Shown piece after piece: positions 40,844 to 51,903 of a stretch of 64,000 nucleotides of DNA. The position numbers and the translations under genes were made by a program. The notes beneath the pieces are model-generated. The model was given only the letters and a program-made list of their open reading frames with translations, ran no database searches and was not told the DNA's origin. Each line of letters begins with the position of its first letter. Position 1 is the stretch's first letter. The DNA is from Cladosporium halotolerans (lineage: Eukaryota). Location of the stretch: positions 496,001 to 560,000 of the forward strand of contig NW_027191461.1 of assembly GCF_011745625.1 (NCBI RefSeq), in the 5' to 3' direction.

Positions 40844-43528
40844 CTAGATCACATTGGAGAAAGAGCCGCCGCTCGCTCTCTTGGAGTCGAGTGCCGCGCT
40901 CTGCCTCCTCGAAGGCGGGAGACTGAGCAACTTCGCGCTGCCCGCTGAGACCTTGCGCGCATGACCGCGGCCGAGAGTGACGGACGTCGCGCGGTGGACT
41001 TGTGATTCCGCCACGGGAGAGGTGGGCGATTCGGCTTCTCCGCCTTCAATCGTGGCGACTTCACCAGTCGCGTATTCGGCGAGGAGGCCTTCGCGAGAGC
41101 GCGCGATCGGGTCGCGGTGGACGAGGGTGGGTTTGCGGCGCACGCTACCGTGCATTTTCATCGGGGCGGAAGGGTCGGCTGGCGAGTCGGGTAAGAAGCT
41201 CTCGTCCTCGTCTTCAGCGTTGGTGATTGTGGGCGTGCCGGAGCGCTGAGGTCTACGCTGCTGCTGCTGCTGCTGCTGCTGCTGTGCTTGAACGTCTGTG
41301 CTCGTGCTCGGGGTGCGGCGGGCGAGGTACTCTGCGTCTTTGTCGTGGCCGCCGAGGTCTTCATAGCTGGCGACGAACTCCTGCGGGCGTCTGTTCAGGG
41401 AGCCGATGCTGCGACTGAGCTGGGAGGAGCGGGAGCCACGCTTGAGCGAGCCGCCGCTGGCGAGCCAAGAGCCCTCTGAATCTACCGAGCCGAGCGATGC
41501 GGACATCAAACCAGTACCCCGGCCATTAGGGCTGACAGGGGTGTCGTAACGCGGTGCGCCGCTGGGGTCGAGATCTGAGTTCCGGTTGTGAAGATTTGGT
41601 CGCTCGATCGGTCTGGGTGAAGATCTCCCCCTGTGGCTCGCTGCAATAGCCGCAGCGCCAGCCGGGAGATCTGGAACATCCGGTGACTGTACGCGAGAGT
41701 CCGGCGGAGACATTGGCATCTCTGGCAGGTCTTCCCTAAATTTGCTCTGAGTGCGTGTCGGCGCGCCGGTTTTGGTTCGCTGGAAGGGTGATTGATCTCT
41801 GCCGAGAAGGTGAGGTGGGATGGGTCCACGAGACATTGATTCTCTAGAGGTGTTTGCGAAGGACGTCTCTGTCGTGGGTGATTTCAAAGGATCCTGTTTC
41901 TTCGTTCCGCTGCGACGGAAGAGCGTTGCCCAGCCTCCTGCGCGTCTAGATTCGATTGATTTCGGCTCGGAGCCCCTTCGTTCTTCGAAAACAGTCGGCA
42001 TGCCAGGCGGAGGCTCAGGAAGAGATGCAGTCCTTTCTTGCCTCAGCTCGGCAATTGTGGGAGATTGCATGGGTTGTGGAATAGAGTGTCTGTTAATCAT
42101 GGGTGAAAGAGGAGGCGTTGCAGACTGCGGGTTGTGTTGCGAATAGCGGACTGCCTGAGCAGTCTCGACAATCGGATCCTCTACGGGGGTCTCAATCGGG
42201 GTGAATGCTCCAGGCATGTCAACATGGCGGGTCTCCAATCGCGGTTCGGGCGCTGGCGAGGGCAGAGGGTCTCTGAACGGATTCTCAGCAGCTTTCCATT
42301 GCTGCTGCTCCTGTGCGGGGCCCTGTTTCCGCGGATCTCCAATTCCTAGACCGACCACTTCGTCGGAATTGATCTGTGGTTCGTCTCGAAGCGCAGGATG
42401 TACAGCTGTAGGGGGCGTCAGAGGTTGGCGAGCTCTTCGCTCTTCCTCCACCCGCGCCCTCGTTTCCTGCTCTCTCTTCGCTTCTTCAGCTTCTCTTCGT
42501 CTCTTGCTGCTGTCGGCTCGGTCTCTTTGGACCTTCGCCTTGAGCTTGCGATCCAGCTTTTCTTGCTGTTCTCTCCTGCGCCTTTCTCGGCGCTTCGCAT
42601 CTCTCTCCATTAATACTCGAAGATCACTCGCATCCATATCGTCCGCTGTAACTCCTATCCTTTGATTTTTCTGCTTGAAGCCATCCACCGGCTGCTTTTC
42701 CTTCGGCGGGTGCGGGCCATCTCGCGACATAGGCGGCTGGCTGTACACGCTCGTACCACCAGGATACTGAGGCGTGCCCGACAGCCTGATCGCAGGCCTC
42801 GGGCTGAACATGTCGAAGACGCCCAGCTCCCAGCCACGCTGCTCCGGCACGGTAGACATCGAGTGGATCGACTCCCCGTACGGCAGCGAGACGCTGGAGT
42901 CCTTCATGTTCCTCCGCTTCTTGCTGTCGCGGCGGAAGATGCCTTCGCTGGGCCGTTTGGGGACGGCGGTCGAGGCGCTCATGGCGCGGATCTCCTCTTC
43001 GCGCACGCGGTCGTCGTCCTTGCGCTTTTTGCTCGAGTGGCGGCGCACGGGCATGGTGTCGTAGGCGCTGCGCTTGGATCGCACGGTCGCGGGCCGGGAG
43101 GAGGGCGGGCGGATGTCTGTTCGCTGGACGCTAGTCTGGGAGGTCGAGTGGTCGCGGAAGGTGTAGGGGATGTGAGGCGGCTTTTCCATTTCCACCGGGC
43201 GGAGGTGCGGCGATCGGTCGAGGTTGTAGCTCACGGGCAGGGCGGTGATGTCTTCAATGCTTCCTCGAGGCCGGCTGGCCGGGCGGCTGGGCTCTTTCTC
43301 GTCGGTCGTCGACGTCACAGGGTACTGCTGATTGGTTTGCTGGTCGTGTGTGTCGGCTGCCTTCTCGGTTTGCTGCGAGGCACGGCGAAGGCGCTGCGCA
43401 AAGCGTGTGCTTGGGCGGCGAGCCGGGGTGGTGGAGGGCTCACTGGGCTCGGAGGGGGCCGTGGGCGGCGAAGAGGTGTCCTTGGAGGTGGCAGCACTTC
43501 GCCGCTTCTTGAAGGGCCACAAGGGCAT
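40844..43528 (-). CDS. Hypothetical low-complexity fungal protein with coiled coil and poly-Q
   Basis: About 894-codon ORF from the first ATG (MPLWPFKKRR); charged coiled coil LMERDAKRRERRRREQQEKL; CAG repeat near 41257-41285. Confidence 0.8.
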   Translation of the reverse strand: MPLWPFKKRRSAATSKDTSSPPTAPSEPSEPSTTPARRPSTRFAQRLRRASQQTEKAADTHDQQTNQQYPVTSTTDEKEPSRPASRPRGSIEDITALPVSYNLDRSPHLRPVEMEKPPHIPYTFRDHSTSQTSVQRTDIRPPSSRPATVRSKRSAYDTMPVRRHSSKKRKDDDRVREEEIRAMSASTAVPKRPSEGIFRRDSKKRRNMKDSSVSLPYGESIHSMSTVPEQRGWELGVFDMFSPRPAIRLSGTPQYPGGTSVYSQPPMSRDGPHPPKEKQPVDGFKQKNQRIGVTADDMDASDLRVLMERDAKRRERRRREQQEKLDRKLKAKVQRDRADSSKRRREAEEAKREQETRARVEEERRARQPLTPPTAVHPALRDEPQINSDEVVGLGIGDPRKQGPAQEQQQWKAAENPFRDPLPSPAPEPRLETRHVDMPGAFTPIETPVEDPIVETAQAVRYSQHNPQSATPPLSPMINRHSIPQPMQSPTIAELRQERTASLPEPPPGMPTVFEERRGSEPKSIESRRAGGWATLFRRSGTKKQDPLKSPTTETSFANTSRESMSRGPIPPHLLGRDQSPFQRTKTGAPTRTQSKFREDLPEMPMSPPDSRVQSPDVPDLPAGAAAIAASHRGRSSPRPIERPNLHNRNSDLDPSGAPRYDTPVSPNGRGTGLMSASLGSVDSEGSWLASGGSLKRGSRSSQLSRSIGSLNRRPQEFVASYEDLGGHDKDAEYLARRTPSTSTDVQAQQQQQQQQQRRPQRSGTPTITNAEDEDESFLPDSPADPSAPMKMHGSVRRKPTLVHRDPIARSREGLLAEYATGEVATIEGGEAESPTSPVAESQVHRATSVTLGRGHARKVSAGSAKLLSLPPSRRQSAALDSKRASGGSFSNVI

Positions 43529-43638
43529 TGCTTGGAGCGGGATATTGGGCGTGGAGGTCAGTGAGGCATCCCCGGGCGCGGCGACGGAGGGCTGCAAGGC
43601 AGTGATGAAGGTGTGGGTTCGGGCGCGGCGCAGGGCGA

Positions 43639-43680
<42 letters not shown>
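43639..43680. repeat. (GCACAG)7 microsatellite
   Basis: Perfect hexamer array about 110 nt upstream of the ATG at 43528. Confidence 0.95.
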
Positions 43681-43683
<3 letters not shown>

Positions 43684-44580
43684 TGTTTCGGGCGCGCAAC
43701 GGCGGGCATGCAGCGATGCAATGTCGGGGGTGTGCAGCGGTGCAGCGGTGCAGAGCGGGCAGGCGTGGTGGTGAAATGGAGAGGAGCGCACTGGCGCAAT
43801 GCCGTGCACGCTGCGCGGACGTGGAATCACGGACGGCGACTCGGCGAGGGTGGACTGTGGGTGGACTGTGGGTGGAGGGTTGTGGACTGTGGGTTGGCAC
43901 TGTGCCCGTTCGAGATGCGACGCCGCAGTGCGCTAGCAGGCACGGCAGGCTTGCCAGAGACACACCAGGGATCGGCCGGCTGGAGAAGACGCGGGAGGCG
44001 TGCCGGGACGTTGTCGTAGCCGCACGCAGGGCACCATGCGCCGCGCTGGCCCGGGGTGACGGGTCTGGGATATATTGTTATTGTTGGCGCTGTGGTGGGT
44101 GAGCGGTCAGTAATGATGTGTACTCGAAGATACAGCTCGAGTTGGGTTGATGAGTGTCCACCAACACACAGACAAGGCGGGCCAGTAAAGAAGGTCTACC
44201 CTACCAGAGCTACGTCCATCTCTCTACCGAACCACACACCTCACAGTCACAGCACTCGCTCTGCACCTCACACCCAGCGTGCAACCTAATCCGGCGTGGT
44301 GGCGCTACGCACATCGCCCTGCCAATGACGACGGTGCAGCCCGTCAGGCTCCGCCAGGCCTTGCTTGCCAGCTTGCGCGTGACAGCTCCACCGACCACAC
44401 GAACGCAGACCCTCCACACACCACGCGCACGTCGTCTGTCACCTCGGCGAGGCATAGCAACAGCATCTCTTTCCCCGTCGCATCACCTCTGCCAACGGTC
44501 TCACGACGCACGCGAGCGCGCAACTCCGTTTCCCTTTCACGCGCCCCAAAGCGTCTACCGGCCGCCAGCCCAGCGCCGGG

Positions 44581-44604: not shown

Positions 44605-46168
44605 CGCAGCTCCCAGGACAAGGGACGCGGGCAGACGTCCACGGCGCGCGCGAAGTGCGTGTGTGGCGTGCGCCATCCCGCGAGAGCCGTAGAGTGCGTG
44701 CAGGGGGGAGGGCGAGCGAAGCAACCTACCCTTTCGCAGCAATGACAATCTCCAGCAATCCCGTGACCGGCGCGCCCTAGGGCCGAGGTCTAGAACTTCG
44801 CACATCGCGACGATCGGGCGTGCAGAATTCGAGTCGAGTCGAGAAGCGAATCCACTCTGCCGCGCAAGCGATATTGGGCCAGTTTTTTTTCGGTGCAAAT
44901 AATACGAGCATTTTCTCCACGGCGAGGGCCGGCTGACGTCCGCCGCGAGGCTGACGAAGTACCTCGACTTGTAATAATAATTGCGCTCGAGTTATTGCTA
45001 TGCAGCAGCAATACATAAAACGCACAGCATCCAGCAGCCACCCAACCCGCCCTGCCCTGCGACACCTTCAACGGGCAGGCGCCCTTGGCCCAGACCTTTC
45101 TGGGCACAAACGGAAAACGGGGGGCAGCAGAACACCTCGTGGAGAACCGGGATAGTCTGTGGGCTCCGCCAATCCGCGGGCCCGCTTGGTCAATATAATC
45201 TGCCTCGCCGATCGGGTTCCTGCAAGCGGCAAGGCGCGCCGCGACGGGACACGGGGAGGGGTTCGGGCTGCTGGGTCGCGAACCGTGGATTCGAGGCCCG
45301 GCGGGCGTTGCGGCCGGCTTCACTTCTGTCGGCTCTGTCTTTTGTGTGTGCATGTCCAGAGCGCTGGGATGCGCGTTCCGTGGGTGCGATCGGTAGGTGT
45401 GATGTTTGTTTAATCTTGGGGCGGCAGCGCGTGGAGATTGGCTGCATGCGAGGTCGTTGCTATAGAGAGGCGCGCGGTATGCATGGGAGGTTTTTTGTGA
45501 GCTTTCGACCTTGACAAATTATTGAGGGTGTCGAAGAGCAAGTCGAGACGAGGGCAGAGACATTCGGCGGACTCATCTGCACATTTTTCCTATAGAAATG
45601 GTACCTATACGCAGGTCGCATGTATACAACAATTACCGCAGAATTGCACAGTCCATCCAATCCATCCCCCATCGACATCGTCCCCAAGCAATCTCGCAAC
45701 CAGTTCCGAACGCAGCCATACGTGTGAACCACATCCACCTGCGAACCGCTGGCTCTTATGTACTATAACACAGATGCACCCCACACGGCACCAGCGCGCC
45801 GCGGAGAACGATTCCCACCAGTCCAGGCGCGGCAGCTCGGCATCCGATCGCAGAGTTCCAGAATGTCTCACCCCTATCTGCGCTCGAGAGTGCGATCTTC
45901 AGGAACGGTTTGTGGACGGATCTTATCGTGACCTGATAACGTCATCTGTCTTAGGTGAGGGACGCCTGGAATAGATTGTAGATTGATCGCGGAAGTCGAG
46001 TGGAGGTGCACGGCATGCGGTTTTGAGATCTTTGACAGGCAGGTAATGAATCCAGAGGAGCAGAATAGATGGAGTCGAAAACACACATCGCGCCTGAGGC
46101 CAACGATCCGCAAGACCTCCAGCTACGTGACACAATAGGGTATTTACTTATTCACAACCACCACGCCT

Positions 46169-49133
46169 TCACCCCTCCAGCACCTTCCCAAACAACCCCC
46201 CCAACCTGCCATCCGCCCTGACAAGCTCCACACACCAGCCCCTCAGCTCCCCCTCCCCCTCCACCCCAACAGCAGCCACCAACATCTCCGCAACGCCCCT
46301 CAACCCCTCCCTCACCTCCGCCATGCCCTCCCCCTCCAAATCCAACCACGCCCCCGTCAACCCCCCCAAAACCACAACCCGATGCTCGCCCACGCGCGGC
46401 CAGGCATTCCGCAGCACCGCCCGCAGCGCCTCCAGCGCAGCGAGCAGCACCTCGCGCTGCCGCGCGCGCGCGGCGTTCGTGAGCGCGTCGCGCAGCGGCG
46501 GCAGGAGGTACTGGAGGTGCTTGACGGTGTCAAGGGCGAGGGCGTCGAGGAGGGGCGGCAGGTGGGCGAGGAGGGTGGCGGCGACGAGCGGGTACTGGCC
46601 GGCGTGGGCGAGGGAGTGCAGGAGGGCGGTGCGGAGGTGCTTGTCGAGGGCGCGGAGGCGGGGGGTTGTGGTGGTTGGGTCGCTGGGGGGGAAGCGGGTG
46701 GCGGTCAGGGTTAGGAGGGCGGGGTAGGCGGTGTTGAGGATTGCGGCGGAATCGGGGGCGGGGGTTAGGGGGGGCAGGTAGGTGAGGCAGGGGAGCAGGG
46801 CGTCTTCGAAGACGGGGCCGAGGCCGGTGCGGGTGAGGAGGGTGGGTGGGGTGTTGTGCAGGAGGCTGTGGAGGAGGGATGCGCCGTGGCGTTTGTGTTT
46901 TGTTTCCCAGTCGTCGACGAGGGTGAGGATGGGTGGGACGAGGAGGGGCCAGAGACGCTCGGTGGATTGGGAGTCGAGGCTATGGACGACCCAGTGCAGG
47001 AGTGCGAGGGCGTGGGATTCCTTCTCGTTCTTCCAGGGCTTTGTGATGCGCTCGTCGGAGGACTCTGCCGTCATCTTCGCTGGCAGGTCTGCCGTGACTT
47101 TCTTGCGGCCCTGCTCGGTCACGCTATCCGGTTTGGCCTTCGCGAACAACGGACGGATGGTAAGCTTGAGGAAGTGGCTCGCGAGGGCGGAGGTAAGCTC
47201 ACCATGCTTTTTCACCTCTTCGATCGCCTCGGTAGGGTCCTTGACGTCCGGGTGGCGGAGCTGCCATGCCATGACAACATCGAGAGCGTCCTTCATCCAT
47301 GGGCCAGGTGGAGTCGAGAGGGCCTTGGCCAGCGTCTTGCCGTCGAGGAGTGGCTTGAGGCTGTAGGCCTCGAGGATGTCTAGGTCGCGGAGGTGGGTGA
47401 CGAATGTGGAGTATTTGCGTTGAGTGGCTGTTTCATGATCAGCAGATGTTTCGTACTGGGTCAATAGATCACCTACCATCAACGTCGTCTTGATGCTCGA
47501 TCAGCTCGACCAGTAGCGCATACATGACCTGGCTTCTCCAAGTAGGTCCCCATCTGCGGATTGCCATGCCGAGTGTGTCCCGCGCCGTCAGATCCTCACC
47601 CTCAGGAGCCTGTCGAATACGACGCTTCTGCACCTCTATACCGTTGACGAATTTTGTGATCTCGTCCAAATTACGGACTGACGATGTGATGATATCGCAG
47701 ACCTTGTTCATGGCTTTGATGCCCTCGCGGATCACACCAGTAGGGATTGGAGGAGGCGCCTTCCGCCCCGGCTCCGATGCAGGTTGAGGAGCATCGCGAT
47801 ATGGGACTACCGCAGACAGGATCCATGTAAGGTAACGCTCATCATCGTCTCTGACAAGGATCTCAGACAGATCGCTCCCACTTCCGAGGAGCGTCTTCAC
47901 CTCGTCAATCAGGGCGAGCGTTCCCTCGATATCAGGGCGATAATGTTTGGCGTCATCGACCGAAGGATCAGAGAAAATTGTGAAGTAAAGACCGAGGTCG
48001 AAAACCAAGCGCATGGCCTCATGCGGATCTGGCCCACGTAGAGCCTTCTCTAACTCTACACCTACGCGCTCACGGCTAATTTTTTTGCGGAGAGCGTCGT
48101 TGATATCTGGGTCGCCCATTGCTTTGAGCGCTGCTGAGTCGATAGTGTAGTCCAGTCGACTGGCGAACCGAATGAGCCGAAGTACGCGCAAAGGGTCATC
48201 TTTGAATGTCTGGTAAGGCTCAAGAGGCGTTCTAATAATGGCATTGGCCATATCATCGAAGCCTCGATTGGTGAAGTCTTCGATCTCTTGCGTGTTAACA
48301 TTGTAGAACAAGGCGTTGACAGTGGCATCGCGTCTGAGAGCGTCCTCTTCCGGTGTGCCGAACTCCATTTGTGGGTTTCTGCTCTCGTCCGTGTACGTTT
48401 CCTTGCGAAGGTTGACCAGATCGATGTCCAGCCCAAGAATCTTGGTCGTCACGGTCTCGAGATGTTTTGACTTTTCGGGGTTGGCTTCAATCTTGTGAAG
48501 ACCGCCGACGGTCTTGGACTTGTCGGTCGTTCCGGCTTTGGCACTCTGCTTCTCCGTAGTGGCGACGCCTTCGAGCCCGTACTTTTCAGGATTACCAGGA
48601 ATCTCAAGGTACTCCTTGAGCCGCATGCCGAACTGAAGTCCGGTCATTTTGTTGATTGCAACATCGATGTCGTGACTCGGGACCCCCAGCAGCTTGTCGC
48701 GAACCCAGCCACCGGTGAACCGCAGGATGATGGGCTGTTTGGCAAGCTCGTCAGGGAGTGCAACTTGTTCGTCTCCAACTTGCGGCGGCAATTGATCGAT
48801 GTAAGAAGCGACATCGAGAAGTAGACGGCGAAGGGTGCTTTCGATTCCGGTGAGCTCGAGAGTTTTTGGAGGTCCCGCCTCGTCATCGACCTCTTGAATC
48901 ATTACGGGGCCCATTTTGGGTCTTTTAGAATGGAGTCGTGTGGGTGAAGCTGAGCTTAGTTTTCTTCGTTTGTTGCCTTCGGGTGATGTTGCAATGCGGC
49001 CGGGAGACATGTAAGACCGGTTTGCGCATCTGAGAACAAGCTGCTTGTGTGGTGACCTGTGAAATGCTGGCTGTTTGCACTTCAGAGAAAGCTGCGCAAG
49101 CCGGTGACTCAAGATAGCTTGACGAGCCAGCAT
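46169..49133 (-). CDS. CCA1: CCA tRNA nucleotidyltransferase with a C-terminal Tti2-like domain, 971 aa; intron 47428-47476
   Basis: GGWVRDKLLG...HDIDVA, EDALRRDATVNALFY, DDPLRVLRLIRF; a 49-nt GTAGGT...GCTGAT...CAG intron joins the two ORFs in frame. Confidence 0.92.
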
Positions 49134-49470
49134 TCACTCGGATTTGAGAATTATCATCAAATCAGGGTGAAAGGTCTGAACATTTGAGGTCCAAACAAAA
49201 TCACGTAGCTAGCGCCGGAAGCCACGATACATACATCACTTTGAAGGTCTCGTAGAGTTAGAGACTCCTCGGACCCTCCCGGCAGCTGAATGCCTGAGGC
49301 TGCCAACCTACATGATCACGGAGACACCATCACGGACGATTGATCGGTCGAACGAACACCGGAACTCCGCTCCACAGCACACTCACACTGCCGCCGATAC
49401 TGGAGACAAATGCTCAGAGTAGACATACAACGAAGTCCATCGCCACGCCGGACACCAGCGAGCCCTTCTG

Positions 49471-51903
49471 ATGACACCGACGCCAGATGATCCGCTGCAA
49501 TCACCGCAGGACTCGGACTCTGAGACGACTCTCGATGTCGCCAAGGGCAGACACTCGAAGCCGGGCAGGTCTCCCCTCTCGTCCATAACAAGCCTCCCGT
49601 ACCGCCGATCAAATGCCTCGCTTTCTCAGCTCTTCCAATCGACCACCTCTCTCCCTACTGCGGCGGGGCCGTCTAGCGAATCTGGCACGGTAACCCCGAC
49701 AGCAGCACCGCCAAATGGACTGGTTTTCTCACCCGGTAGCACGGGGTCTGCGCGACCCGCGTCGCCTGCTGTACCAGGAGCAAATCTAAGCGGCGAAACC
49801 AAAGACCTCATTCTGCGGGCGTTTGCGCCCCACGTATCGGTTCTAGCCTCGCAAGATACAGAAGAGTTGATCAGGCATAAGGGCATAAGTGGAGGTCTGC
49901 TGGAGCTTTTGCGGCCATTCGGAGAGCATGTTCAGGGCAAGGTCACAATTAGAGACAGCAGCGGCGCAAGCCGGTCATGGGACGACTTCGCGGTACGCTT
50001 CATGGGCGTCAAGGACGGCTTGGAGAGCCCGCGCATGGCGGATAGACGAAGCATGGAGTCGAACACCGACTCGGCGCAATATGGCGCAAAGCGACTCTCG
50101 GCGTTGGAGTTCAAGCCAGCAAGGCTACGATCTGGCGGCGATGTTCCGCAGATCGAGGAGCTCGTCGAGCGACATCTCACATTTGCTGAAGAGCAGTCCG
50201 GCCCGGTGGAGGCCGACTACCTCACATACAACATGGAGAGCTTGGATCGTGACCCTGGCTCTGACTCGCCTTTTTACATGCTCTACCTACGGCGGCTGTT
50301 GTCAGGTATTCCTCTGGTGCCTTCCGAGACTATCAGCCATCCTGTCGCTACTGTGATAGCCATTTCTTCTCGCTCGCCAAATCCAATTGAGGAGCTTCGG
50401 ACACTTTATGCCTCATCGAACACCGGGGAGCATAGGGTACCGCCTTGGGTTTTGAACGAATTTCTACGATATTATGTCCTGATACACGACGAAGACTACG
50501 ACGACATCTCGAAATCTATGGCCCTTTACGATCAGATGAAGCGCCACTTCGGCTTACACTGCCATCTCCTTCGACTCCGGAGCACTCAATGCGTGCCGTC
50601 CGATGACGACAGCGTTAAGCTCCCTCATACCGAATGGATGTCTGCAGCGGAGGAGTTGACAGAGATCGTGCGCCGAGAGACGAGTGAAGATGACGAAGAT
50701 CCGACTCCATGCGTGTTCGAGTCCGACGCCAACGCCATCCGGTCCTTCGTGCGAGAGATGGTCACGCAGTCGCTGATCCCGAGTATGGAGCGCGCGTCGG
50801 CGCAATGGAACGACCAGGTTGCGTCTAGGAGGCGTGGCATAAGCGGTCGATTCATGTCGCTTTCGAAGCGATTCACAACATTCGGCGGACGCTCTTCTTC
50901 TGGTCCATCGCTGGGTGGCGCCGGCAGCAATTATGACAGCGTTCAGGGCTACTACAAGCCTGACGCACCTGAAGCTATTATGCGAAGACTTGCTGATCAT
51001 GCCATGATGCTACGAGACTTTAAGCTTGCTCAAGGCACTTATGAGATACTCTGTCAAGACTTCAAGAACGATAAGGCGTGGAGATATTACGCGGGTGCAA
51101 ACGAGATGGCGGCGGTCAGTACGCTGTTGGCCGCAGGGGGTCTTAGCAGCAAAGCTCGAACAGAGACGGTCGACCAATACCTTGAAGCGGCTTACTATTC
51201 CTATGTTACCCGTGCGAATGCCCCATACAATGCGCTTCGAACGCTGGTACTTGGATCCGAGCTTTTAAAATTACGAGGAGGCAGCGCACTGGACGACTCG
51301 GCTCGCTGGCTGAGCAAAATCATTGACGATCGCTTGGTGGGCCCTACCGGTTACGCCTTGCTTCTCGAGCGATCTGCTATCTGCTACAGCGAGCGTCAGG
51401 GCGTAGCAGGTCTAAGCGCCGGTGAGAGGAAACGGAAGGCAGCTTTCTGGCACACATTGGCCGCCGAGGCATGGTCAAAGCAGGATAAGAGCAGTCAAGC
51501 CGAGAACTGTCTGCGTGCTGCGGCTCGTCTGTACAAGTCGGGAGGCGCGAATCTCGAGTTTGGCAACATGCAGAACTTCCTTGCTTCTCTACAGGCGACG
51601 GTCAAGGCGAACCGAGCCGGACCGCAACACCTCGACATCGGCGACGACGAGCAGACGCTTGTAGAGCCCATGCAGGAGCAAGATCACCAATTTGGACCTC
51701 ATTCGCCGATAGGCCACCGCAAAAGTATCAGCACCAATGCCGCCTACTTCCCCCAGGTAAACACTTCCTTTGACCCACTCGGAGCGGTGCCCAATGCATA
51801 CGGTGGACCGCCAGCAGACGCATTGAATCCTCAAGCTGCTGCCGGTGGACTTCCTAGTCCAGGGCTGGAGCGTAGACAGACGAGAGACGATGGTTTTGAA
51901 TGA
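49471..51903 (+). CDS. TRS85: TRAPP III-specific subunit Trs85
   Basis: AFAPHVSVLAS, LLRPFG, ETISHPVA, LRYYVLIHD, MKRHFGLHCHLLRL, EAIMRRLADHAMMLRD. Confidence 0.88.
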   Translation: MTPTPDDPLQSPQDSDSETTLDVAKGRHSKPGRSPLSSITSLPYRRSNASLSQLFQSTTSLPTAAGPSSESGTVTPTAAPPNGLVFSPGSTGSARPASPAVPGANLSGETKDLILRAFAPHVSVLASQDTEELIRHKGISGGLLELLRPFGEHVQGKVTIRDSSGASRSWDDFAVRFMGVKDGLESPRMADRRSMESNTDSAQYGAKRLSALEFKPARLRSGGDVPQIEELVERHLTFAEEQSGPVEADYLTYNMESLDRDPGSDSPFYMLYLRRLLSGIPLVPSETISHPVATVIAISSRSPNPIEELRTLYASSNTGEHRVPPWVLNEFLRYYVLIHDEDYDDISKSMALYDQMKRHFGLHCHLLRLRSTQCVPSDDDSVKLPHTEWMSAAEELTEIVRRETSEDDEDPTPCVFESDANAIRSFVREMVTQSLIPSMERASAQWNDQVASRRRGISGRFMSLSKRFTTFGGRSSSGPSLGGAGSNYDSVQGYYKPDAPEAIMRRLADHAMMLRDFKLAQGTYEILCQDFKNDKAWRYYAGANEMAAVSTLLAAGGLSSKARTETVDQYLEAAYYSYVTRANAPYNALRTLVLGSELLKLRGGSALDDSARWLSKIIDDRLVGPTGYALLLERSAICYSERQGVAGLSAGERKRKAAFWHTLAAEAWSKQDKSSQAENCLRAAARLYKSGGANLEFGNMQNFLASLQATVKANRAGPQHLDIGDDEQTLVEPMQEQDHQFGPHSPIGHRKSISTNAAYFPQVNTSFDPLGAVPNAYGGPPADALNPQAAAGGLPSPGLERRQTRDDGFE

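Follow-up and report, generated by a model that had tools for sequence, protein, structure and literature searches.

Here we describe a composite gene on the minus strand of a 64,000-nucleotide (nt) stretch of the Cladosporium halotolerans genome (contig NW_027191461.1, positions 496,001 to 560,000), hereafter the window, in which the gene for the CCA-adding enzyme of tRNA, CCA1, runs into sequence homologous to Tti2, a subunit of the Tel2-Tti1-Tti2 (TTT) co-chaperone of the PIKK kinases. An earlier note, made from the letters alone, had read CCA1 as lying in frame with a Tti2-like domain, and the DNA bears this out: the minus-strand frame is uninterrupted from 47427 to a TGA at 46171-46169, with a PolyA_pol match (E 2.5e-22) upstream and a Pfam Tti2 match (PF10521, E 2.3e-67) downstream. 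The two parts meet at a piece of 65 nt that is a conserved, frame-shifting, coding intron, or exitron, and we read it so because it is spliced out in RNA, because it encodes residues invariant among Tti2 proteins, and because its donor is fixed at synonymous sites. The features are given below in window positions, where X5, X6 and X18 are public RNA-type sequencing runs, P0217 is the protein deposited for this species, 9ns2_A is the chain of a solved cca1 enzyme, and the distinct DNAs come from the metagenome scan described further on.

47477..49133, minus strand: CCA1 exon 1, 552 codons plus 1 nt, its open reading frame (ORF) starting at 49133
47428..47476, minus strand: intron 1, 49 nt, GTAGGT...ACAG (GT..AG), skipped in the X5, X6 and X18 contigs
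47203..47427, minus strand: exon 2, the C-terminal tail of CCA1 (ending PGPWMKDALDVVMAWQLRHPDVKDPTEAIEEVKKH plus G), aligned with the end of 9ns2_A and with a weak PF13735 match
47138..47202, minus strand: the 65-nt exitron, spliced out between GT and AG in the X5, X6 and X18 contigs; when retained it codes for (G)ELTSALASHFLKLTIRPLFAK, the Tti2 part's first conserved helix
47197..47202, minus strand: splice donor GTGAGC, present in 63 of 63 distinct DNAs
47160..47164, minus strand: CTTAC, branch-point-like, inside Leu-Thr codons, its A 23 nt 5' of the 3' splice site
47124..47126, minus strand: TAG stop of the spliced, CCA1-only mRNA (631 amino acids (aa), ...KKHGQTG*), the same end as P0217
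46172..47137, minus strand: the Tti2 sequence beyond the exitron, 322 codons long, a helical solenoid of HEAT-like type and the counterpart of the C-terminal two thirds of Tti2 (matching profile 41-275 of 279 in Pfam Tti2, E 1.5e-66)
46169..46171, minus strand: TGA stop of the retained 971-aa frame, from the reading of the frame
Tryptic peptide across the junction in the retained frame: HGELTSALASHFLK

Past the ...AIEEVKKH of the CCA1 tail, 344 further codons (47203-46172) follow in the CCA1 frame, next to the roughly 345 residues that the earlier note had estimated, and the strings it had quoted from this frame, KPWK, WPLLVPPILTLVDD, TGLGPVFEDALLPCLTYLPPLTP and NAWPRV, are all present. These 344 codons score 227.9 bits against PF10521, whose curated cut-off is 25.2 bits, well outside what chance would give, and cover profile positions 28-275 of 279. 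The upstream part matches PF01743 (PolyA_pol) and PF12627 (PolyA_pol_RNAbd, E 4.6e-6) and aligns over residues 213-614 with PDB chain 9ns2_A ('tRNA nucleotidyltransferase cca1', 502 aa) at E 4.4e-84; with a nucleotidyltransferase head, an RNA-binding domain and similarity to a solved enzyme, it is a class II CCA-adding enzyme. The 9ns2_A alignment stops at residue 614 of the 631-aa product with 20 residues of the chain left over, and by this comparison the 631-aa short form, which ends 17 residues past that point, has a natural end. At the other end of the protein, CCA1 exon 1 has in-frame ATG codons at positions 1, 42, 74 and 78, and the first 41 residues, which are basic and hold no acidic residue at all, may form a mitochondrial presequence.

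How the junction is handled in RNA was read from four public runs (X5, X6, X18 and X21) aligned over 46000-49300 as contigs, not raw reads. X5 and X6 belong to one study, are 99+% alike and come from the same species, and X18 is a relative at about 97% from another study. The contigs of X5, X6 and X18 each show two GT..AG joints on the minus strand, skipping 47428-47476 and the 65 nt of 47138-47202, so that an intron lying inside an exon is removed in mRNA-type contigs. The donor-like G|GTGAGC that the earlier note had pointed out at 47203|47202-47197 is therefore in use, since these contigs join 47203 directly to 47137. Because 65 equals 3n+2, splicing shifts the frame and a TAG is reached after four codons: the spliced message reads ...EEVKKH-G-Q-T-G-TAG and yields 631 aa, and the unspliced junction frame yields 971 aa. 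The spliced contigs extend 300-450 nt into the Tti2 part, past the TAG, and the Tti2 part is therefore 3' untranslated region (about 950 nt) in the spliced mRNA. The main assembled mRNA, then, has lost intron 1 (49 nt) as well as the exitron (65 nt) and encodes a CCA-adding enzyme of normal length, 631 aa. This is the CCA1-only isoform that the earlier note had thought conceivable from a donor at 47202, and it is the deposited C. halotolerans protein P0217, which is 100% identical over the exon-1 query, equal in length and in its C-terminal residues, and without a Tti2 domain. A simple fusion as the main mRNA does not survive this result, for the form assembled in three RNA-type runs is spliced and stops four codons past the junction. 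The earlier note had named a stop at the junction, or the lack of a Tti2 profile match, as grounds for giving up its claim; for a simple fusion the spliced contigs come close to the first, and the Tti2 profile does match.

Evidence of the same splice exists outside this species. In the JGI contig L076, which is Aureobasidium-like, exactly the homologous 65 nt are absent, with breakpoints that coincide with the donor and acceptor sites in two genomic relatives of the contig, L037 and L066; the Logan ORF P0260 stops directly past the junction Gly, reading ...THQANGQPI*; and a 632-aa model of Teratosphaeria nubilosa carries no Tti2. The contigs of X21, a run guessed to be RNA, cross both introns unspliced at 47103-47709, and X21 therefore behaves as DNA or pre-mRNA and is uninformative on retention. 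Two gene models of Dothideomycetes sp. NU459 differ in the same region: isoform t2 (P0277) joins the donor residue (…DMHG) to a site about 106 residues on, and isoform t1 (P0086) skips 18 residues inside the exitron peptide, differences that may reflect either further alternative splicing or model error. The RNA structure around the exitron is nothing special (z = 0.59).

Since the donor, the acceptor and the candidate branch site all lie within codons, their conservation can be compared with the codon choice of the same genes. A scan of metagenome contigs gave 80 loci, 76 of them with the motif, which together with the window make up 63 distinct sequences. In every one of the 63, the junction frame is open and a putative intron of 65 nt begins with the donor GTGAGC. 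The donor residue is Gly or Ser and is always written as GGT in 45 of 45 cases and as AGT in 18 of 18, and the codon after it is GAG in 63 of 63; the background in the same genes is 22% GGT among Gly codons, 13% AGT among Ser codons and 57% GAG among Glu codons. At the other end, the last exitron codon ends in AG in 58 of 63 (AAG 41, CAG 17), and the six non-AG loci examined all offer a CAG in phase, either 3 nt before this place or 6 nt after it, and thus the intron length remains 3n+2. Between the two ends, the Leu-Thr pair is written with CTT in 60 of 61 DNAs and ACC in 54 of 61, CTT making up 15% of the Leu codons in the same genes, and the resulting CTTAC is a putative branch site. In 62 of the 63 sequences the spliced frame meets a stop 1-29 codons on, and the remaining contig ends before one could be reached; the post-splice tails are not conserved across the 63.

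The same 65 nt are conserved as protein. When the exon-2 product was aligned with 120 long relatives, the exitron peptide took the form [G/S]E-L..L..HFL.LTIRPLF.[K/Q]; it was found in 117 of the 120 fused relatives and was 22 residues long in 112. Its residues L86, I90, R91, P92, L93 and F94, numbered in the exon-2 product, are invariant against nine stand-alone Tti2 proteins of Leotiomycetes, Eurotiomycetes and Sordariomycetes that are only 27-33% identical, and all of them, IRPLF included, are encoded within the 65 nt. A tblastn search with ten stand-alone Tti2 proteins likewise has homology beginning at 47233-47173, that is, at the donor. Among 61 distinct DNAs, first and second codon positions of the exitron are largely fixed and most third positions vary, which is the signature of translation in the retained frame. 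The AlphaFold2 model of the exon-2 product (predicted local distance difference test, pLDDT, 87.2) places residues 76-95 in a confident helix, which a disordered linker separates from the solenoid, and several alignments of the model with HEAT/ARM proteins begin at residues 72-85. To judge by this conservation, the retained exitron may be translated. One metagenome contig, L080, has a TAG and indels within the exitron frame (960-1100) and frame changes nearby, which points either to a sequence or assembly of poor quality or to a dead copy.

As to the identity of the C-terminal part, the earlier note's recognition of Tti2 holds good: beside the Pfam match, 45 columns are invariant against the nine stand-alone fungal proteins (including IRPLF, T..GRK, KPWK, VFEDA and N..PR), and homology reaches human TTI2 (residues 218-433 of 7f4u_C at E 3.7e-5, and 9wjy_B at E 3e-5). 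The whole of this part is helical in the AlphaFold2 model. A Foldseek search with the model gave a best E of 2.6e-3 and VIA-align Z values of 15-19, returning generic HEAT/ARM solenoids only; the fold-search rows shown held no TTI2 chains, an absence that is uninformative for repeat folds.

A whole Tti2 is not what the locus holds. The profile is matched only from position 28, and the stand-alone Tti2 proteins align only from their own residues 160-195, or from residue 79 in the N-terminally shorter P0207. The Tti2 part is without the N-terminal 185 or so residues found in stand-alone fungal Tti2, roughly human TTI2 1-193. No homologue of the Tti2 N-terminus was found in the window by tblastn with ten stand-alone Tti2 proteins, and when the ESM Atlas was searched with residues 1-188 of a Leotiomycete Tti2, in case the N-terminal piece exists as a protein of its own, the matches were full Tti2 clusters (score 0.86) and HEAT proteins of generic kind only. 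A candidate for a Tti2 motif inside CCA1 was rejected: PGPWMKDA, considered as the Tti2 motif DPW.T, corresponds to PGPHLRKMLDD at the same place in the unfused cca1 of 9ns2_A and so belongs to CCA1 itself. According to PMC8278493, human TTI2 1-193 pulled down TTI1, and TTI2 194-508 was insoluble; a review (PMC10178989) places the TTI2 N-terminus at the TTI1 C-terminus.

The phylogenetic distribution of the fusion, which the earlier note had suggested checking, turns out to be class-wide. All 120 long relatives among the matches listed (of 141) carry both Pfam domains, and the fused relatives listed span many orders of Dothideomycetes and one Arthoniomycete, Alyxoria varia; a further relative comes from a genome bin that bears the label Sarea resinae (Sareomycetes), a tentative assignment. 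Of the 63 distinct DNAs, 48 lie on contigs long enough to include the stop, and in these the frame of the Tti2 part stays open over 277-385 codons. No named stand-alone Dothideomycete Tti2 occurs among 93 near-length matches, the close ones being exon-2 ORFs that still bear the CCA1 tail, and no NCBI protein of this genome with the Tti2 part occurs among the long or near-length matches listed. An exhaustive HMMER search returned 855 relatives, and of the 48 examined, those without a CCA1 tail are at most 43% identical; ten stand-alone representatives that were looked up belong to Eurotiomycetes, Lecanoromycetes or Leotiomycetes, none of the ten to Dothideomycetes.

Outside the class, the two genes can be found side by side. 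Gene models joining CCA1 to a complete Tti2 (1070-1236 aa, Pfam profile 1-279) exist in four Aspergillus species (indologenus, violaceofuscus, japonicus and uvarum; P0429 and P0443-P0445), in Helicocarpus griseus (P0378) and in Teloschistes (P0438, P0439 and P0326). In the Aspergillus models the Tti2 N-terminus (MEELRAAARKSL) stands directly behind the CCA1 tail, and in Teloschistes chrysophthalmus adjacent locus tags, 000529 and 000530, carry CCA1 and Tti2. With CCA1 and a full TTI2 as neighbours in Eurotiomycetes and Lecanoromycetes, the tandem of CCA1 followed by TTI2 therefore predates the fusion, and a tight linkage of CCA1 and TTI2 is suggested in other Pezizomycotina too. From this comparison of gene orders, the lineage of Dothideomycetes and Arthoniomycetes (dothideomyceta) appears to have lost the intergenic DNA together with the first ~185 codons of TTI2. 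The Aspergillus Tti2 start, right at the CCA1 tail, also hints at read-through or at a promoter inside CCA1.

The reading we prefer, at a probability of roughly 0.6, is that of a composite CCA1-TTI2 gene in which the conserved 65-nt junction exitron sets the output, the spliced form giving CCA1 alone and the retained form a Tti2-carrying product. Splicing of the exitron, the step seen in the RNA contigs, delivers the CCA-adding enzyme alone, and, to judge from the conservation of the peptide, a minority of transcripts would keep the exitron. Only these retaining transcripts would read the Tti2 part, including the IRPLF helix, in the open frame, which is also the frame of CCA1, and their simplest product would be a 971-aa CCA1-Tti2 fusion supplying Tti2 function to the TTT co-chaperone. 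A fixed GTGAGC donor paired with a fixed, off-consensus CTTAC might make splicing efficient and incomplete, and incomplete splicing would keep CCA1 high relative to a low level of Tti2. As a gene fusion at the level of DNA, the locus is plain: there is one open frame, conserved across species.

Several points weigh against this reading. None of the X5, X6 and X18 contigs keeps the exitron while lacking intron 1, so that of the two products from one locus proposed in the earlier note, the CCA1-only product stands on the spliced contigs and the Tti2-carrying product has no RNA among them; the depth in the exitron bin of these runs is exactly that of the spliced contig alone. Contigs lose minor variants, and their silence sets no upper limit on the retained form. 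Protein evidence for the 971-aa product is likewise nil. The usual fungal branch consensus is CTRAY, from which CTTAC departs, and its role as a branch site is therefore uncertain. P0217 may have been annotated from the same RNA data as X5 and X6 and is for this reason not counted as independent. The missing N-terminal piece matches the one that in human TTI2 pulled down TTI1, which makes the product's way into the TTT complex uncertain, and a second TTI2 or a separate gene for the Tti2 N-terminus could lie elsewhere in the genome, the search of this species' own DNA having covered the 64-kb window.

A bolder form of the composite-gene reading holds that the 971-aa protein has CCA1 in place of the Tti1-binding N-terminal third of Tti2, so that the Dothideomycete TTT, which serves TOR, Mec1/Tel1 and Tra1, would carry a tRNA 3'-end enzyme, and the exitron ratio would be a regulated dial coupling the status of tRNA or of translation to PIKK biogenesis. 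We regard this as rather improbable.

The strongest rival is a pair of overlapping genes, in which a TTI2 transcript would start from a promoter inside the CCA1 coding region, keep the exitron and use an in-frame Met of the CCA1 tail (MKDALDVVMAWQL...), giving a Tti2 of ~375 aa with about 30 CCA1 residues; the CCA1 mRNA would then use the exitron only for its stop. We consider it possible and, on the whole, doubtful. The conservation of the exitron peptide fits it as well as it fits a fusion, and the merged Aspergillus models, in which Tti2 starts right at the CCA1 tail, leave almost no intergenic space, so that TTI2 there is possibly driven from within CCA1. In the exon-2 product, M44 and M52 hardly vary, which would suit a start; however, these Met residues lie in a motif that unfused CCA1 conserves as well and are no evidence for one. 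Such a transcript would moreover contain the same splice signals, and nothing seen explains how it would escape splicing. X5 and X6 each have a single unbranched contig running from exon 1 across the junction into the Tti2 part, which also speaks against a separate transcript, although contigs are not single molecules.

Far less probable is a bicistronic spliced mRNA, in which an ATG at 47205-47203, overlapping the CCA1 stop region (ATGGCCAAACCGGATAG), would open a frame through the Tti2 part (MAKPDSVTEQ..., 323 aa), reached by reinitiation or on a short transcript. The spliced mRNA does contain the 323-aa ORF, preceded two codons earlier by a TGA in the same frame, and 27 of the 63 distinct DNAs have an ATG at the same place, but the other 36 have none, including every one of the 18 whose donor codon is AGT (Ser). 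Its product would be without the exitron helix, although IRPLF is invariant in all Tti2 proteins compared, which would leave the coding conservation of the exitron unexplained, and reinitiation past an ORF of 631 codons is not to be expected.

Two further readings we hold to be hardly credible. A constitutive fusion, always making a 971-aa bifunctional protein past an accidental GTGAGC, would agree with the open DNA frame and with the annotation of all 120 long relatives among the matches listed as fusions, but it founders on the spliced contigs of X5, X6 and X18, which come from two studies, on the spliced contig of a third lineage (L076), on a donor whose synonymous sites do not vary in any of the 63 DNAs, and on a deposited model of 631 aa. 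An untranslated remnant in the CCA1 3' untranslated region would account for a main mRNA that stops ahead of the Tti2 part and for a deposited annotation that gives this part no protein, but not for a frame open over 344 codons here and 277-385 in the 48 of 63 distinct DNAs reaching the stop, a Tti2 match at E 2.3e-67, invariant residues shared with distant Tti2 proteins, variation concentrated at third positions and a confident helical model.

About 290 nt upstream of the CCA1 start, a divergent open frame of 826 codons (49423-51903, plus strand) matches Pfam TRAPPC-Trs85 at E 7.7e-150. Downstream of the Tti2 part, a 1077-codon open frame (40847-44077, minus strand) is rich in Ser, Pro and Arg and matches no Pfam family at E <= 0.001; it has a (PV)n run from a dinucleotide repeat near 43600-43700.

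Public databases already contain models of the fused protein, and the domain combination itself is not new data. What is new is the nature of the junction, a conserved frame-shifting coding intron, together with the N-terminal truncation of the Tti2 part and the derivation of the arrangement from an old gene pair. We found no paper linking Tti2 with tRNA nucleotidyltransferase, CCA1 or TRNT1 among the matches listed, nor one linking Tti2 with Dothideomycetes, and the titles and opening lines of abstracts of the matches listed for exitrons in fungi mention no fungal exitron. Tti2 is essential in yeasts (PMC10178989). Dothideomycetes are a class rich in plant pathogens and extremophiles, and the only Tti2 copy detected in them lacks a start codon of its own, being readable only through an intron that is removed from the main mRNA. 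Annotation pipelines either fuse the two proteins, as in 120 of 120 long models among the matches listed, or drop Tti2, as in the model deposited here, and neither is correct. On the composite-gene reading, the junction would exemplify, across a whole class, how a coding intron that shifts the frame can switch a locus between two essential functions, with its splice signals embedded at synonymous codon positions. It also raises the question of how a Tti2 without its Tti1-binding end works in TTT, and whether CCA1 takes part.

Of the systems with which this locus can be compared, the closest in sequence is the stand-alone Tti2, the TTT subunit that serves the PIKK kinases, which it resembles in the PF10521 match, the 45 invariant columns, the alignment with human TTI2 218-433 and the helical solenoid; the Tti2 part here differs in being N-terminally short, in having no start codon of its own and in standing in frame behind CCA1. 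The CCA1 and TTI2 of Eurotiomycetes and Lecanoromycetes are the same two genes in the same order on the same strand, with some models merged, but there Tti2, as known from gene models, is complete, with its own N-terminal Met sequence after the CCA1 tail. Exitrons, coding introns inside exons, are said to have been described by Marquez and colleagues in 2015 in plants and humans, and the 65-nt element is like them in being a GT..AG intron wholly inside coding sequence whose retained form is longer and whose non-3n length shifts the frame; unlike them, its frameshift is useful, giving an essential enzyme its normal stop, and it is a fixed feature of a whole fungal class. In yeasts that branched off before the genome duplication, SKI7 and HBS1 are one gene that makes two proteins by alternative splicing, and there too a splice choice at a single locus yields two proteins with separate functions; those two are paralogous variants of one fold, whereas here an unrelated essential protein is added to a tRNA enzyme. 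Finally, the class II CCA enzymes (yeast CCA1, human TRNT1 and the cca1 of 9ns2) share the head and RNA-binding domains, and the stretches GGWVRDKLLG...DIDV and EDALRRDAT, which we take to be CCA-enzyme motifs by their role, are visible in the 9ns2_A alignment. Yeast CCA1 has several in-frame start codons, as here; in contrast to all of these enzymes, the stop codon of the present one exists only after the splice, and the unspliced message reads on into Tti2.

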